DNA of 64,000 nt from Cystobasidiomycetes sp. EMM_F5 (lineage: Eukaryota): NCBI GenBank assembly GCA_051047955.1, contig JBPGPT010000008.1, forward strand, positions 310,001 to 374,000, read 5' to 3'. The notes below the pieces were generated by a model, which did not search any database, had not been told where the DNA came from, and saw only the letters and a list, made by a program, of their open reading frames with translations. Made by a program: the position numbers and the translations under genes. This document shows positions 10,250 to 21,653 of this stretch, piece by piece (positions within the stretch are counted from its first letter, which is position 1; each line of letters starts with the position of its first letter).

Positions 10250-13200
10250 TCACCAGAAAGCACACCATCTGTGACAGATGTATGTCAATCGTGATCTTGC
10301 ACGGCATGCAATTTGCAAGAGGGACGTACCCTTGATACGCCAGCGCTAGATGCTCGACCTTGGTGGCGGACGTTATCAATCGAGACACCTGCTCTTCAAT
10401 GTCATGTTTACCGCCAAAGTCCGTCCCGACGAGTTTTGTTCTGACCCTGACAATCGCTCGTTGCGCTCGCGGCGTCAGTGTGGTCACTGCCCGCGGGTTG
10501 CCACTCTCGGTGTGTCGTCGTCGGGGACGGTAATGCTGTCGCAATACTGCAAAGTCGCCATCATCGATGACTTCGGGCTCTTCGTAGACTTCCTCGTGAC
10601 GGCTCTCATCGACTTGACGAGGATGCAGGACCAGGTGGGCGACCAGCGGGTCATGGAGGAACGAAGAAAAGACGGCTTCGACAGACTCTTTATGTTCTCG
10701 CATGACCCTCATTGTATGTTGCGAGCACAGTCTGAAATTGCCCTTGGTCCCAGTGGGACCCAAGCATCTTATCAACTGTCGCGTCAACCGGAATGGCACC
10801 CTCTCAGGGAATGTGTCCCGCTCGGTTGCGATCTCGAAGCTGTCTCCAAAATCGCTATCAGGAATAGCAGTCAGCAAAAAGAGCCAAAGCAGACCCGCAA
10901 TAGCCGTACATGTGAACACTGTCAACGATATCGACGGGTCAGAAGATACAGGAAGACCTTTTCCTCCGACTCACATTTCACCCGACTGTCGATCCATGAG
11001 TATGTTAGATGGATGGCGGCTGTGTGTTTCGGGTAAGCTGTGATGTTTGATACGTGGGGGCAAATGTGCTTACTCTCCAAGACCTAGGAGGTACCCAATC
11101 TATGAGAATGAAAGGTGCTGTTAGCAAGCCCTTGTATCAAGTCGTACAGTGCCATACCATCGAATTTGTGGCGAGCGACCTGGCATACGCTGTGCGTCTT
11201 TCCATCCAGCTAAGACAAGAGGTACCTTGACACACAGACGAAAGTAGCTTTATGTGAGCAAGATGTAGCACAGCGTCGTAACAAAACCTTACTCTTCCGC
11301 CAAAGAATCGAGGCTAGCTCATCACCTTCGGTGAGATCGGCAGCTAGCTCGAAAGCCTCTACACTCTGTATTGTGTTCAGGGATCCACGTGCTATCATTG
11401 GCGCAAACTGCAGTGAAACTCAGTGCCAGCTGCCAGCAAACATGGGTACGAAGCTTACGATGGCCTGCTGTTTAAGCTCTAGCTCCATAGTCCTGCCTTC
11501 TAAACGTCTAGCTGCTCGGCAGAGAGTCTGTAACGTATCGCCGCGTTCGAACCAGGAACACAAGCCTGTATACCGCGCTTAGCTCCAGTCTTTCTCAGAT
11601 GGTAAACAAAACAGAACATACCGGCATTGTGATTCAGCGGGATCACCGCATAGCGCACGATGCGAAGATGTCTACGCAGACTATCTTGATCGTTGGCCAA
11701 TAATGAGTTGACCAAGACAAACTGCATGCCATGTGAGCGTTAGTGCCGTGGCCACAATTTACATATTGGAAAGAGTAGAAGTACCAGCTGGCCGCAGCGC
11801 TCATCCATGCGCAGATCCTCCCTCGCCTTCAACAGGAATCTGTAGGTCTTACCATCGGACCCTCTCATGGTGAACTTTCGGGGTCTCTGTTTGGACGACA
11901 AAACCTCGACCACCCTATTAACTTCCACAATATGTACAGGATCACCTCCGTGCCGAACATAGGTACCTGAACCGTAGTACGAGGTAGAAGGGCGTGCGTC
12001 ATGTAACAGTAGTTGAAGAAGCGAAAGAGGCTTACCTGGCACTGAAACTGTCATGTTCCGCGCGGCTGACAATGTCGGAGCTACATCTGCAAGACTGAAG
12101 GATGTCGTGCCTTCCTTCGTTATCGACGTGCAGGTCTTGTGAATCGAGTGTAACTTTCGCCACATTGCCGCAAGGTCTTTTTCCGAATAATCGGGTTTCA
12201 GACATTTTTGGGCCAGTGCTGAGGCAGCGAAAGCATGGTCAATCATCCGATACGGTACCGAATGGACTGCTCATCGTCAACAAACCTCGAGCTGCATGTA
12301 AGGCGTCTCCGAGCTTGCCGACAAAGTGGCAGTCCTGCGGGGTCTGCGGGTTCTCGATGTCCTTGCACATTTCCTCGACAGCATATACGAGACCTTCTAC
12401 GTCTGCGAGATCGGAGTCAGATCCACGCCGGAAAGATCAAAGCATTATGGCCCACTTTTACCGTCTGATCCGAACAGATACTTGGCCGCACCCTCTATCG
12501 AATAAGCGCATCGCTCTTCCCAGGTCATAGAGGTGCGCAGTAACTCCTGATTGACCATTATCGCCTGGAATCCAATAGGGTCAGCTGGAGTTTGCTTTGT
12601 AAGATCCGTTGCAAGCGAACCTCCTCCACCAGCGTATTATCATACAGGCGCATAACATCCATTAGACGCCTTGCGACAGCTGCACGATCGCCAGAAGGAT
12701 ATTGCGCGACTGCGATCAGTGATGCAATCATTGTATGCGGGTGCGCTCTCCCAAGACGTCGCATTAGAGATTCTATGATCGGCTGCAATTGCGGCGATGG
12801 ATAGTTCAACTGTGCGCTCAATTGAGGTATGGCTTCCAGCCAGCAATCAATCGGCAGTTGGTCGAACGCGGATTTTGCTGCAGACGCCATGCGACTCCGC
12901 TGACCGTGCTTGAATATGACGGTAAGGACACCCAGAATGTCCTGAAGCGGATAGTTTGACGCTAATCTGATCATTGCGACATAGTCTGGCGGCAGGCGGT
13001 TTCAGCCAAGATCATACCGTATAGGCATGCACATACGCTCTATGGCAGCAACTGCAAGGTCGGTCAAACTGGTCTTTTCCGGGCTGTCCCGGACTTCATG
13101 AAGAAACTCGATAAGGGCCAGATTATTGGTCGCCAACTTGCGATAACCCTTCGGTGTCTGCCACAAACGCAGAGACCGCTCGTAATAGGTCTGACTGCGA

Positions 13201-16200
13201 GACAGTGCGTGCTGTTGGTCCGAGAATAGCATTCAGTTGAATTCCTCTCACGAGTCACAGCTAAGATTATCGTACCGCATTGTCTTGTCGAGCATAGTCT
13301 CCTAGACATTGCAAAGCTCGAGACAGAATCAGTTTGAGTTCATGAATATTACCGAGCGTTTGTTGGCTCTTTTTCGTGAGACGATTGCAACTCTCGAGAC
13401 GGTCGGCGAGCTTGCTGACGAGTTCTTCAATGCCTTCCGTGGCACCGACTTTATCGCCCGTATCTGCTACTAATCGGCAGCGCTCTAGTGTCAGACCAGG
13501 CCATTCCGAAACGGGCTGAGATAATCAAGGTCGTCAGTGTTGTGTTTGTCTTGCCCAACGTTAAATGACATACTATCGATGATAGATTCAAGGGACTCGT
13601 TGTGAGATCGTCCATTGCGCGTGCTTGAACCTTGAAAGCAAGATCGAGCCGCCCAGCCTTTCGAAGAATACGAGCATATCTAGTGATGTTTTTTACGTTC
13701 TCTGCCGGCGTCAGAACAATGGACTGTACATTTAGACAGCGATTGAGGATATCATCGTCTTTTTGTAATAGGCTGAACCTGGTCGACCAGAGTTCCTGGA
13801 TTAGAGGTCGCTCCGCTGAGTGTGACTGATAACGACCGCTGCTCCGGATTCATTAGCAAAATCCTAGAGAAGATCAACATCGCGTACGCTTCTTCCAACT
13901 CTGCCAGCAGCTGAGTGCGGACCATCGCCGCGTATGAACGGCCGGTCCGACTGTGTCTCACATTGACTGGCTCAAACAAAGGAGAGTATTCAGGATATGG
14001 CTGGGCGTTGTCTTCCGCCCAGAACCCACCGAGTTCGTCGCTCATTCGGTCCCGCGCTAGCCCGATGTCGACCAAAGCGGTCGGCAGGTCATGAGACAGC
14101 GTCGATGTGACCGCAGAGTACCATGCCTTCTCTGTCGGGTTCATGTCTTGGACAGCGGATGCCATAGTCGCGAATCTATTGGTCCGCCAGGCCGCCGTAG
14201 CAAGAAGAGGAGCAGTCAAAGGTTTCGTATGTAGCGGTTGGTTCTTGCCTTTCGACTCAGCAAAATCGACCAGTAAGTCCCATTCCTGCAATGCATGTAA
14301 CGACTAGAGCGCGAACTCTTAAGTGAGAGCAGAGCAGGCAATGCACGCAAAGAGGAACTCACTCGCATTACTCCTACAATTGCGTCTCCGTCGCCCGGGT
14401 TCCGTGACAGGGCTTCATCGAAAGTTTGCAGGTTGCTTTGTTGCACCTCGCCAATTTCTGAAAATGTTGTCACCGGTGCGTTTGTTATTTGTAGCAACCC
14501 TTGCGCGTGATCGGGCTCGCGGCTATGGAACTGCTCGTCGAATCGCAGTAGATCGCGAACGACTGCTTGAGTTCGATTCTGTAAATCAGAGGCTGAAGAA
14601 AGATCATCGAGCCAGGCTTGCATGTCATCCGAATTTCGTTTGAGCCACTCCGAGCTAATGTCGTTGTACTCCATTTCCGCATACCGAACCGCGCGATGCA
14701 TGAATAGGTGTTTCCAAGCGACCTCTTTTCTTAAGGTGGGTTTGATGCCGAGCTTAACGCTCATGCGGTCCAGAAAGTCAATGAGACTGTGAATAACATT
14801 AGCGGAGTCGTACTGAATAAGTTAAATACGCCATCGTACAAGAGAACAACATTATGTATTTCCGGCGTAGCGTCATCTCGCTGTAGTATTGTCTGCAACG
14901 AAGCTGTGATGTTGTGTTGCGTAACCACATCCAGGTCGTGCCAAATAGTATATGTGCCATAGTTAATGAGACTGCGTTGAAAGGTCTGATGAAGCTGAGC
15001 AACTGCCGCGGTCGCACGGATGTGCGGATGGTTGCTGTACTTTACGATTGCAGTGCCGAGTCCACCAAGCCAGTCAGTCCAGTCATTAGCGCAATCGCCA
15101 AGTGGAGGAGCGAAGGCAGCTTGAAGCGGGCGAGCGTCGAGTAGGAAGACAATGTCCTTTTCCGGCTCATCGGTTGCGGCAATTCTGTGTGTACGTCAGC
15201 TTGTGCTAATGTGAAATGAAACCGACTGCTAACCTCGGTATCTCGTTGGCTGTTCCCCGGAGATGACTGACATATAGCGGGTGATGACGAATATCGAAAG
15301 GCAAATCTTTCGCAAAGAGCTCCATGAAAACGATAGCTTCTGGCCCGCATTCTTTCATGACAATGCATGTTGCCCTTATTGCAGCCGCGCGGAACTCTTC
15401 TTCGTGGCAGAGCGGAACCAAGATGGGTAGAAGGCGTGTGAGGTGGGCACCAACATACGCACTGCACGCAAGAATGCCAAGACCATCCAGCGCTACAATC
15501 CGGGTTGCAACGCTGGTTCCGTGTTGAATGACTTCCAGCAAAGAGGGCAGAACAAGATGGACCCATTCGCGCAGGTGGTCAGACATATCGCATATGAACC
15601 GGATTGCAGATTGGATTGAATGATCTTGTCCAGTATCGCTAACCATGCTAGATGCGATTCGTGGTATGACAAGAGCAAAGTACTCACGGAAGTCAACACC
15701 CAATGATGCCGCCAGAGCAGATATTGTGTCAATAATGCAGTTGTTGGGCTGAAGTCCTTCATCCCAGCGCTAAAAGTAACGTTCGTCAAACCGACGCTCT
15801 GCATAAGCACGATTAGCAATCTTACTTGAAGCAATGTTGCCACCACCTGTGACGCTTTAGCTTCTACAGATCCCACAGCTCTCAGAATGAAGCCTAAGCC
15901 TGATATGAAGTAGCAAGTAGTCTTTACTTCAGTGTGTTGCTCGGCGATTGCTTGTAGGAAGCGTTCGATGATTGGGCCCGTGTACTTCTGGCTGCGTAGG
16001 TGGTTGGAAGGATCCCTGTATACTGCCACCAGTGCATCGACAACCTGATTGCGCTAAGTGAGCATGCGTTGGATTGCCTTATTAGACTTGTGTACTTACA
16101 GCGTAATGGATCTTTTCAGGCTGTGGCTCTCTCCAGATGGTAAGCAATTGACCGGTGAGCCAGTCCGCTATGAAAGTTGGTGCTTTGCATTTGACTTCAT

Positions 16201-19200
16201 CAATGTCATCAGAGATCAGGCCATTTTCGAGCGCTCCGGCATTCGTCGTCTCGTCGGGCCCGTCCACGATCTCCTGTACTACGAGATCCGCGATGTCAAG
16301 CCCTGACTGTATGGGCTTCGAAGCACCAATCGTCCCTAGCGCTTTCACAATCTCGCGTCGTGCATGTATTTCCTTTTCGACAGTAAGTAATCCAATCAAC
16401 AGATCGATAATATCGTCGCGAATGGTCGCCACCTCTGCGATACAGGCAGTTCCGTACACTAGCTCCGTCAAAGTTTGCACAGCAATGCGACGCTGCTGGA
16501 CAGATCCGGGCTCACGAAGAACCTGGCAGATAACATGGACGAAGTCCATAGCTTGCTTACGAAGCCCATCTCGCGCGTCTACCGATAGTCGACGAAGCAG
16601 ACGGAATCCGGCAATGACAATGTCTTCGGAGTCAGCCGTGCGGAACTGGAGTAAAAGGATGTCCACCGCCGGTCGCACATATAAGGCAGCAAGATCGCGG
16701 GCAGTGTCGAAGATGCTTGTTATGAGGTTGAGGTGGTGACATCTAGCAGCAGAGTGCCGTATTTCGTCCATGGTTGTCAAGAGACCAATAAGCTCGCTCC
16801 TCAAAGCGGGCATGATGATCGCGCTAGCGCCATCGTGCTTCTGCGGCCTTAATATTGAAGGGTGCGTAAGCACAGGTCGCCGCAAGACTTACAGAACACC
16901 TACAAACGCCCCAGAATTTTCAATATGGCCGCCTGCACTGTCATAGAGTTGTCGTTGATGGCAAACAGCAGCAGACGGATAGGCTCGGATTGTACGAGGT
17001 AGAGGTCGAAATGCTCATCGAGACAGGCCAGAGTCTCTTCCCGGATTTGCGGATCAGGATCAGCTATACCGATGCGTAGAAGTGTCTGCATTATATCTCG
17101 GGCGGGCCCAGAACTCGCATTTGACGATTGTGTATATGAATTGTTTACAAGGAAAGAAGCACATGCCTTCGTGGCTGTCCTGCGTGTTTCGGCATCTTCA
17201 TTGGTGGTATACGGAACGATATACTGTTGAACCCAGTTAAGCAACATGGGAACGTTGACGAAATCAAAGTGTGCAATCGTCTCCATGACAAGGTGCCGTT
17301 GACGTTCTTCGTCGGCTTGAGCAGTCTCTACGAGCTCGCGAGCTCGCTTAGGCGAGAGCGACCGACCTCGAGCCCGCTCGAATATGCTGCTGCTCCTACG
17401 GCGCGTCATGGTGGTTGGACGTCCCTCCCGCACTTCCACGACGGAAGCTCGCCGATCTCGAGCGGTGATTTTTGAGGAGCCTGGAATTGCCCATTCACGG
17501 AAAGTAGTGCCGCACAGGCTGACAGACAGAAGATCCAGTAAGCGGACTGAAGACATGCAACAAACGGCTCAGCCAAATGGTCTTTTCGGAGATCGACGTG
17601 ATTATTGCTTACGCCTAATATCGTACGCCAGCGCGGGTATGTTCTTTATGACTACGTCCAGAGTCGTAACGAGAGCTTCAGAAAGACCGCCTGAACACAT
17701 CGGCTCAAGGACAGCTGCGATGAATTCCTTCATTGGCGAGCCGAATGCCCGTACACATCCAGCAACAACAGCAAGAAGCGCGTCATGGAGCCCAGGTAGT
17801 CTTCGCTGCTGTACAAGGCCCTGCGTGAAGTTGAACACTATGCCGTCTAGATAGCCAGTGGCGCGCAGGCCGACCAAAGGTAGCAGTTTGGCGGTCGAAT
17901 GCAGAGCTAGTTTACGAGGCAAGTAGCGTCAGCATCGCCATTGATCATAGGGGCGAAAGCAACAGACCTGCGACCTGTTCTTTCTCTCGTTTAGAAGCAT
18001 CAGCGAGCCACGGGAAGACGGAGGATAGCCACTTGGAGCAAAAGGCTTCGGGATCGCGCGGCGCGCACAGCGCGACAAACTCCATGATTGATCTGTTTGC
18101 CGTTGTATCTCGATCCCGAACATCCAGTAATGGATCCCAAATGCATTCTATGGCCTCTTGCTCATCGGCAGGAGCCACCTTTGCAAGAGCGCAACATGCC
18201 AAGGCTCCCGCATGAAGTTTTGCAGGAGTTGCCATTGGTGAATGAATAGCTTTGATTGCAGTGGTTAGCAACTCATTGCGCGCCATAGGTCCCTCCTCCT
18301 GCGAGAGAGCCGATAAGCAGGCCTCAAGAGCGACTCGAGCTCCATCTCGTATGTTCTGCTTGGGATCAGTGAGAGCATGCGACCAGATATCCTGTATGGC
18401 CCGAGCAGCTTGGTCCCGCACGACGACAGCAGAGGTGGGTGTCTGCATCAGCTCAGTAAGCAAATAAATCGCACCCACACGCTTGCGTTCGCTGCGTGAT
18501 TCTGAATATGACGGATTAGTGATTCCCCTTAAATACTTCGATTATGCTATCTACTCGCCTTCGAGCCATTCGAGAATCTGTGACGTTTCCCTGGTCACAA
18601 GGGCTGCCATACCTTCCAGCGGAGCTAGTGCTGCAAACAACCTGGCAGCATCGGACATGATACTGGGATCGTTGCAAGGGATGAGTCGGATGAGAGCGGT
18701 TGCCAGCCTTACGGCCGACCGTGCATCTGGCGCCGGATGAATGGCAAGGATCTCGCCAATTGCAGCTGCTGCTGCCCATTTAGCATCGACATCTTCTGAC
18801 CCAGCTAGGGCAAGTAGATGGGTCTGAAACGAGTCGGATGTGTATCCCGCGACGGTGGCGGCGTGCATAGGACGAGCCGGTAAGAATGTCGGTGTATGCA
18901 CTCCTCCGTGATGCGGTAGCGCAGTGGGGGTGGTTACTCGACTGTTGGGTTTCAATACGGGCTTGCCGATAGTAGCGGACGGGGTTGCGACGACAATAGA
19001 AGTCTTGGGTAGGCTTGCTACTAATGATGGTGGATGGGCCTTGCCTTCACGCTCGCGGAGAAGAGCGGCTCGGAATTTGGCAGTAGCAGCCTGTCTTTCC
19101 TGTGGTTGACTATTACACATACAGAAAGTAATTCAAAGTCGGGATGCATGTGCCCATAATGATGGGAGATTAAATTATGTCAGCTGCAGGAATCAGCGGA

Positions 19201-19515
19201 CCTCAGGACGAATAGCTCGAGGCCTGCTCACCGGACACGAAGACCTAAAAGCAACTCCTCCAGGACGCTTGTGACCATAGGTACGGCATGGGCAAAGTAC
19301 GGAGACTGATTGTGGTGGATTTGGCGATCGTCAGCTAGCTTGAGGCCGTGCAAGGCTGGGAGCGGGTGGTGTGCGTGTACAGACAGAGGGCGGGCCGAGT
19401 GAGTTGCTGGCGGATGTCCATGGGCCCCGTCGCCCGCAGTATCCACGCCGGTCGCAGGCGCGCTGGCTAGGAAGCTGCGCCGGGCAGCCGAGGGGATGGA
19501 TATGCTGAGGGGCAT
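10250..19515 (-). CDS. TOR: TOR-family PIKK kinase, highly divergent (HEAT-FAT-FRB-kinase-FATC)
   Basis: IGIADPDPQIR and KALGTIGA (HEAT); WLEAIPQL and LGRAHPH (FAT); SKQRPRK..GSDGKTYRFLLKAREDLRMDER; spliced IGYLLGLGDRHPSNILMDR and IVHIDFGDSFE; ERVPFRLTR; FATC YQGWCAFW-TGA at 10250. The start codon and some N-terminal junctions are less certain. Confidence 0.92.
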
Positions 19516-20050: not shown

Positions 20051-21653
20051 TTACGGCTTCTCTACTGCTTCCCGCAGTTCCGACAACAAGAGAGCCCTAC
20101 TCTCATCGGCCGATTGCTCCGCCAATACAGCAAAAACCTTCTCCACAATGACCATGTAGCGATTCAGATTCGCTTCGCTCGCCCTGTCAGCCGGTGCGGA
20201 GTCCAGCAGCCATGCCACAGTGCCCACAATCTCGGGTTCATGCCCCCTTCCACCAGCGAACCCTGCAACACTGTGCGTAACTGCACAACCGAATGGCTGA
20301 GCAGACTGGGACCATACGAATCTGCTCGGGCAAGCGGCATTTTGCTCTGAAGTGTACCTGAGGGGAAACAGCCCCAGATTGGAAACCTCGAGCGACGAAG
20401 AGAACGGTCTTGAGGTCTGCGTACCCTGCAACAAGGCACTCTCCCACCCGTTTAGACTAGCTTTGTCATTGGGATCATTCGAATTGTCAGGCCACCAGTC
20501 CATCAACGCCCAACGTTCTCGACCCAGCTGCTTAACGTGCGGATCTATTAGATACTTGCCATACTCGCGCGCCAATGTCCAAAAATCAGCATCTTGAGCC
20601 AGCTGGTATTCATACGACGGCGTGGCCAGTACATAGTTGCCAGTTGCGTCTGGGTGACCTAGGAAATCACTGCGAGTAGACATCGGTGTGCTGAGCACGA
20701 CAGGCAGCTGAGAAGTAGATGTCTCGATGAAAAGAAGAGCCACAGAGAGTGCCGTGCCAAGGACTTGCTGTAAAGCCTGCACATTTCGAGCTTTACCAGC
20801 ACTTCGAATCATGGAGGTCCTGCTCGCTGATATACTGTACACCCGATACTTTGCACTAGCAGACAAAGGGTCCTTGCCGGATCCACAGGAGTCGTACAGA
20901 TTCTCGAGAGACTGATACGGCCAGTGATCAGAATCTACCCAGCCTAAGACTCGCGAAATGTAATTCGGTAGGATGGGCTTGAGGATTTCCTTTGCTACCA
21001 CGCTCAGGGTCAATCGGATGCTGGCTTTGATCTTTGTCGTAGCCTCAAACGCCGGTGAAAGACTGCCTCTACCATCGTGGGACGGTATCGGTGAGAGTCC
21101 TGCTAGTTTCAGCAGCAAATGCATGCCGCCCAAACCGTCCGTCAGAATATGGTGAATTGCCAGGGTCAAATACGATTCCCTTCCATCTTCCCGATTGTAC
21201 AATGTTACTCTCCACAGCTTGCCTGAAAGCACATCAAAGCTTGAAATTGCAGCGTACATCTCTCGTTGCATGATGTGCTGCATTTGCAACTCCCACGACG
21301 GCGCTTCGTCACGCAAGGGCTCGTCATGTAGTAGGCTGCTTGGCTCGATAGATGCTGTTTCAAACGATGGCTTGTTGGCACGGTAGTCGACAACGCGACA
21401 ACCCAGGAGCGGGTATGCCGAGAAAAGCGCGCCCAGTCGCTCGATTATGGCATCTCGCTTGGGCAGATCAGCAGAGGATGGATAGGTTAGTATATAAACG
21501 AGAACAGGGACTGCGCCGAGATTAGAGCGAGTCAATGAATAGCGTTCATGTCGCGATACTGCAACGGTTCAATCAAAGTCAGCTTCGGTAGTTACTGCCA
21601 ACTAAACAATGCAGCTTGCATGCACGGCCTTGAAGCTGAGACTGGCTTGCCAT
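20051..21653 (-). CDS. Alcohol acetyltransferase / condensation-domain-like CoA-dependent acyltransferase
   Basis: Near-intronless ~500-aa ORF with HHILTDG (HHxxxDG) motif, YPLL, LWRV and SLEVSNLG. A short first exon from ATG 21653 is spliced to LSRHERY. Confidence 0.78.

Follow-up and report, generated by a model that had tools for sequence, protein, structure and literature searches.

A second TOR gene in the window

The window, a 64,000-nucleotide stretch of the Cystobasidiomycetes sp. EMM_F5 genome (contig JBPGPT010000008.1, forward-strand positions 310,001–374,000), contains a divergent paralog of the TOR kinase on its reverse strand. The whole gene occupies 10250..19278 (−) and was modelled by spliced alignment to the canonical TOR of the same genome, with hand curation. 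The model encodes 2445 amino acids (aa) in 29 exons and contains no internal stops or frameshifts. Its 28 introns are predicted, 27 of them GT-AG and one GC-AG, and measure 49–69 nt, apart from the first, which is 122 nt long; a few junctions in the HEAT and FAT regions are uncertain. Four apparent introns that lay within open frames were discarded by hand.

A single protein carries the order HEAT–FAT–FRB–kinase–FATC, although single-exon Pfam matches are weak except for PI3_PI4_kinase. The N-terminal HEAT solenoid (15185..19278 (−)) and the FAT region (12621..15184 (−)) both have approximate limits, and the former gives weak matches to HEAT and to mTOR_dom (PF11865, E = 1e-4, below the cut-off). 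Two in-frame insertions interrupt the HEAT region: a Pro/Thr/His-rich segment of about 60–70 residues (19050–18830 (−)) and an Arg/Ser-rich segment of 29 residues (17433–17347 (−)), which are possible regulatory loops or introns. Overall, the window and canonical proteins are 28% identical, with 24% identity in the HEAT solenoid, 27% in FAT, 22% in the FRB, 45–47% in the kinase domain and 48% in FATC.

The kinase domain is complete. An N-lobe exon (11785..11966 (−)) retains the P-loop, K2187 (11829–11827), E2190 and D2195 (mTOR numbering), while the segment with the hinge and the Lst8-binding element (11293..11565 (−)) keeps W2239 and part of the Lst8-binding element. The catalytic loop residues D2338, H2340 and N2343 and the DFG triplet (10853–10845) are intact over four small exons (10845..11099 (−)), and a 9-nt micro-exon (10918–10910 (−)) lies directly 5′ of the DFG. 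The end of the C-lobe and the FATC (10250..10854 (−)) finish with a TOR-like Trp-Cys-Ala-Phe-Trp terminus followed by the stop codon. With every member of this catalytic set present, the protein is predicted to be an active Ser/Thr kinase.

The genes around the paralog are ordinary fungal ones. A small ubiquitin-like domain gene (PF00240; 9384–9626 (−)) adjoins it downstream. Upstream, an intronless 505-aa frame (20051–21568 (−)) weakly matches the Condensation domain (E = 1e-5, below the cut-off), and its product may possibly be an acyltransferase. Basidiomycota is the commonest phylum in the cluster nearest to a neighbouring Nup96, which gives a hint of taxonomic origin. The lineage of the window-type TOR is probably basidiomycete.

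The FRB domain is spliced at normal length and has lost most rapamycin contacts

The FRB is encoded by three exons, numbered here after mTOR by aligning the canonical TOR of this genome, without gaps, to PDB chains. Exon 1 (helix 1; 12462..12564 (−)) keeps W2023, E2032 and F2039. It is separated by a 59-nt phase 1 GT..AG intron (12403..12461 (−)) from exon 2 (helices 2–3; 12286..12402 (−)), and a 67-nt intron of the same phase and type (12219..12285 (−)) precedes exon 3 (helix 4 and linker; 12036..12218 (−)). Removing the two introns leaves an open reading frame in which W2023 and position 2108 span 86 residues, as in mTOR. The splicing proposed in the first-pass annotation is upheld by this length and by an ortholog without the second intron (P0224, see below), which aligns over the second junction with a one-residue gap. 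An automatic spliced aligner placed the second intron at 12258–12177; we rejected this alternative in favour of 12219..12285 because the latter yields the mTOR length and is bridged by P0224. The helix-4 residues are unaffected either way.

Manual alignment had earlier suggested a series of changes at the rapamycin-contact surface, and each was recovered when mTOR numbering was applied: S2035A (12486–12484) and Y2038L (12477–12475) in exon 1, and T2098A (12171–12169), D2102R (12159–12157), Y2105H (12150–12148) and F2108H (12141–12139) in exon 3, with W2101 (12162–12160) retained. Exon 1 carries three further changes absent from that list, W2027C, L2031I and R2036K. We compared these positions with 108 other TORs that each cover at least 80 FRB columns (excluding rows that had under 80 columns of the FRB or 280 of the kinase domain), a set biased toward divergent representatives returned by searches with the window gene. 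Tryptophan occupies 2027 in 106/108 of them, where the window paralog has cysteine. Threonine occurs at 2098 in just 5/108, so T2098A is not diagnostic. Cysteines at 2055 and 2068, encoded by exon 2, flank the helix 2–3 loop in the window FRB and in P0224, the two lineages that cover it, and are found in one and two of the 108 TORs, respectively.

Measured against ten rapamycin-contact residues taken from passages of PMC8391992, the window paralog retains 2/10 and the canonical TOR 8/10; the departures in the latter, F2039Y and T2098N, are both common variants among other TORs. Five of the 108 likewise retain just 2/10 contacts, and S2035, W2101 and F2108 are kept together in 63/108. As judged from these alignments, natural loss of contact residues in divergent TORs is clearly not rare. 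TOR fragments named Coemansia or Kickxella (P0005, P0008, P0026 and P0033) also lack rapamycin contacts (e.g., A2035 with H2108), making theirs another fungal group in which the FRB is altered; P0026, the one tested in a tree, falls outside the window clade.

The importance of F2108 for rapamycin, which the first reading had stressed, is borne out by passages of PMC2997006, in which binding of rapamycin requires the yeast equivalent, F2048, and mutations at F2048, W2041 and S1975 confer resistance. Amphipathic helices of substrates and inhibitors dock on the FRB surface used by FKBP12–rapamycin, according to passages of PMC7464330 and PMC12184488. In the window paralog this pocket is remodelled, as had been proposed, with Y2038, Y2105 and F2108 replaced by Leu, His and His; that reading gains support because orthologs carry the same new helix-4 residues. 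Together with a basic residue at 2102, these replacements should, we infer, abolish drug binding and alter docking, and the window paralog has likely lost rapamycin binding. S2035A alone is tolerated according to the first reading; the open-access papers searched for this change did not mention it.

A canonical TOR is encoded elsewhere in the genome

A Pfam FRB search of the organism's own genome returned a canonical TOR as its sole match (G000:C243:446697–446990, E = 8e-43) and missed the window copy. The canonical gene lies on a contig other than the window's and was modelled with 2335 aa and 18 introns. Three of these 18 intron positions are shared exactly with the window gene, and perhaps three more. 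GC and GC3 are 0.53 and 0.53 in the window gene versus 0.51 and 0.56 in the canonical one. A Tti2-family gene (PF10521; G000:C243:436168–436991) shares the strand of the canonical TOR and lies a few kb upstream of it; Tti2 is a component of the co-chaperone complex for PIKKs. ATR and ATM each occupy a separate locus. Raptor, Rictor and Avo1/Sin1 are represented by one locus each. An FKBP12-like gene on contig C101, its frame read by hand, contains what look to be the usual binding motifs.

The window gene is not the organism's main TOR, since the rest of the genome encodes a canonical TOR whose FRB is intact, as well as FKBP12, Raptor, Rictor and Avo1/Sin1. This bears on the earlier prediction of natural rapamycin insensitivity, which is supported at the level of the protein (2/10 contacts, F2108H) but lacks support at the level of the organism, where the canonical TOR and FKBP12 are present. 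Genome content does not place this fungus among naturally insensitive organisms, which have no competent TOR or no competent FKBP12. Resistant TOR alleles are described as dominant in passages of PMC10900876, and organismal resistance would therefore be possible only if the paralog ran TORC1; unless the paralog can replace TORC1 in this way, we consider such resistance unlikely.

Orthologs place the window copy in a distinct clade

When 1.84 billion representatives were searched with the C-terminal exon, P0066 (152 bits) and P0067 (131 bits) ranked ahead of canonical TORs (≤108 bits), and a short fragment, P0100, was also recovered. Later searches added P0215 and P0220–P0224, the last five matching 61 residues of the N-lobe at 63–79% identity; P0219 corresponds to the reading frame of the window itself. 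Those ortholog fragments that were looked up trace to Logan, ENA or JGI. A homolog search among proteins of 306–2000 aa found no ortholog, its top match (P0001) being a canonical TOR, and the ESM Atlas placed P0066 in generic PIKK clusters only. A pattern scan of metagenome contigs for the orthologs' genomic context gave no stretches, and a scan for P0066 gave 230 pattern matches, none of them confirmed.

Phylogenetic analysis unites the window copy in one clade with fragments that derive from four or more further organisms. In a C-lobe tree (229 columns) it joins P0066, P0213, P0214 and P0215 with support of 100/98, and in an N-lobe tree (76 columns) it joins P0220, P0222, P0223 and P0224 with support of 99/92. 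In these trees P0213 and P0214 represent P0067 and P0100, and P0221 was omitted because its exons are identical to those of P0220. The N-lobe set contains five distinct lineages including the window, with 53–75% identity among themselves, and P0066 and P0224 each find their best match in this genome at the window locus. On these comparisons, the window paralog is not a one-genome oddity.

The clade shares residues in helix 4. H2108 is present in 4/4 covering lineages, and W2101, H2105 and K/R2102 in 3/3; among the 108 other TORs, H2105 occurs in nine, H2108 in five and both together in none. Three of the 13 columns from 2100 to 2112 are invariant across three lineages, and all three are among the four contact positions, an overlap that is suggestive by a post-hoc hypergeometric calculation (0.014, or 0.045 without W2101). 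P0220 and P0221 differ at 0/103 exon-coded residues, at 6/16 intron read-through residues and at 20/110 out-of-frame residues, a pattern as would be expected under purifying selection. P0224 passes the Pfam FRB cut-off, and its predicted structure, which covers helices 2–4 without helix 1 at pLDDT 81–94, has mTOR as its best match. Helix 1 is covered by no ortholog in the clade, and S2035A, Y2038L and W2027C therefore rest on one genome.

Conserved differences also occur outside the FRB. Just after the catalytic lysine (11829–11803 (−)), all five lineages of the N-lobe set replace G2188 with A or P, H2189 with R and Q2194 with M or L; R2189 is found in 7/108 other TORs. The Lst8-binding element (11407–11293 (−)) contains a two-residue insertion common to the window copy, P0066 and P0215.

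Comparison with known TORs and other PIKKs

The window paralog shares its domain order, its catalytic residues and the 86-residue FRB core with TOR and mTOR, and the PDB entries that it matches best are Tor2 and mTOR. Its identity to those full-length TORs with which it aligns along most of their length is only 24–28%, it has 2/10 rapamycin contacts, and motifs specific to its clade occur in helix 4 of the FRB, in the N-lobe (H2189R), in the hinge and in the Lst8-binding element. The PIKK fold is also common to SMG1, DNA-PKcs, ATR and ATM, and an FRB-like bundle is present in SMG1 and DNA-PKcs according to passages of PMC7464330. The ortholog P0066 scores 214–221 bits against TOR structures, 111 against ATR and 108 against SMG1. 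A kinase tree likewise places the window clade on the TOR side with support of 100/99, apart from ATR and ATM; the trees contained neither SMG1 nor DNA-PKcs, which are set apart by score and fold only. As far as scores, fold and trees can tell, the paralog is a TOR rather than a different PIKK. Within the kinase tree the clade joins other long branches, and in a full-length tree the canonical copy is not its sister. Its long branch and unlike composition mean that the trees give no age for the duplication.

Two TOR genes per genome are likewise found in other fungi, including Saccharomyces cerevisiae, Schizosaccharomyces, Batrachochytrium, Pleurotus, Phanerochaete and Fusarium oxysporum (LS TOR). 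Described duplicates retain FRB residues in passages of PMC2997006 and PMC7032718, and the extra TOR of F. oxysporum is about 96% identical to its core copy in a passage of PMC6001611. The duplicates in the first two papers keep the equivalents of S2035, W2101 and F2108, whereas the window copy combines S2035A and F2108H with 28% identity and a rebuilt FRB. Trypanosomatids also encode additional TORs with separate tasks, the paralogs TOR3 and TOR4, and passages of PMC10933368 report mutated rapamycin-binding residues in this group. TOR3 and TOR4 belong to an unrelated lineage; the origin of the fungal clade is therefore presumably independent. None of the sequences in the trees was recognised as trypanosomatid. 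Literature searches among open-access papers listed no report of a window-type TOR clade.

A specialised kinase and its alternatives

We lean, by a modest degree, towards a second TOR that arose by old gene duplication in a fungal lineage and now acts as a specialised kinase with its own substrates. The helix-4 patch (W2101, K/R2102, H2105 and H2108), which is the part that can be checked, is common to the relatives, and it therefore points to a probable specialised kinase and is not proof of the organism's resistance. In such a kinase, the FRB would retain its helical fold and its gatekeeper place by the active site, and a polar, basic patch would replace the aromatic pocket. With the pocket so changed, the paralog would no longer bind FKBP12–rapamycin. 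It would probably also no longer dock ordinary TORC1 substrates by their amphipathic helices and may select other substrates or partners. The canonical TOR would run ordinary TORC1, so rapamycin should still slow the organism. We conjecture that the paralog's insensitivity is a by-product of altered substrate docking rather than a defence.

A possible, though not probable, extension is that the paralog defines a third kind of TOR complex, in which the substrate gate carries a basic His-x-x-His patch instead of an aromatic pocket. Equally tentative is the set of roles that would go with it: recruitment of a new substrate class, or metal or pH sensing, in a fungal counterpart of trypanosome TOR3/TOR4. 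Genome searches found no second, paralog-specific Raptor, Rictor or Avo1, although such searches can miss divergent copies, and a new complex is therefore not supported.

It is unlikely, but deserves weight, that the paralog is instead a dedicated catalytic subunit of TORC2 whose pocket changed and coevolved with Rictor and Avo1. Rictor's C-terminal part blocks the FRB in TORC2 in a passage of PMC7464330, and a pocket covered in this way would be free to change; the genome has one Rictor and one Avo1 locus, and yeast TOR paralogs are known to divide labour (passages of PMC2997006). However, where fungal paralogs divide the work of TORC1 and TORC2 between them, they retain the S, W and F residues in every species examined in those passages, and a HEAT solenoid just 24% identical to that of the canonical TOR, together with the altered Lst8-binding element, fits poorly with such a subunit.

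The FRB may alternatively have lost its binding role and be drifting as a structural spacer, its shared histidines inherited and not selected, which we regard as improbable. The window FRB is identical to that of P0224 at 24/69 positions (35%), compared with 39–41/70 (56–59%) among canonical TORs, and faster drift within the clade also fits relaxed constraint. FRB divergence lies inside the range expected from the kinase domain: regressed on kinase identity across the 108 TORs, the window copy is not an outlier (z = −1.25), and we dropped the proposal that the FRB had decayed faster than the rest of the protein as not significant. Drift does not readily account for the placing of the invariant helix-4 columns, all at contact positions.

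Slightly less probable still is the strong form of the first-pass annotation, in which the paralog is a rapamycin-proof TORC1 backup and the organism is resistant. Its retention of just 2/10 contacts, the dominance of resistant alleles and a passage of PMC6001611, in which an extra TOR goes with weaker inhibition of F. oxysporum strains, would agree with a backup. But a single substitution suffices for resistance and here the whole paralog is only 28% identical to the canonical TOR; its surface for docking TORC1 substrates is altered too, and the canonical TOR and FKBP12 are both retained with normal binding residues. A pseudogene, mis-splicing or a contaminant contig is highly improbable: the model is built on predicted introns, but 2445 stop-free codons, orthologs under constraint, GC and GC3 near those of the canonical gene, the exactly shared intron positions and the ordinary fungal neighbours all argue against an artefact.

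Implications for TOR biology

The fungal TOR copies described in passages of published surveys all retain the rapamycin site, and the window copy differs from them. Its absence from the FRB-profile search is a warning that TORs of this type escape such searches. The gene is not evidence for drug resistance of the organism. What it offers instead is a natural experiment on the role of the FRB: a normal TOR is accompanied by a conserved one that is catalytically intact and has a rebuilt FRB. Such a pair sets the binding of rapamycin apart from the gating of substrates and could bring to light a fungal TOR function outside TORC1 and TORC2.
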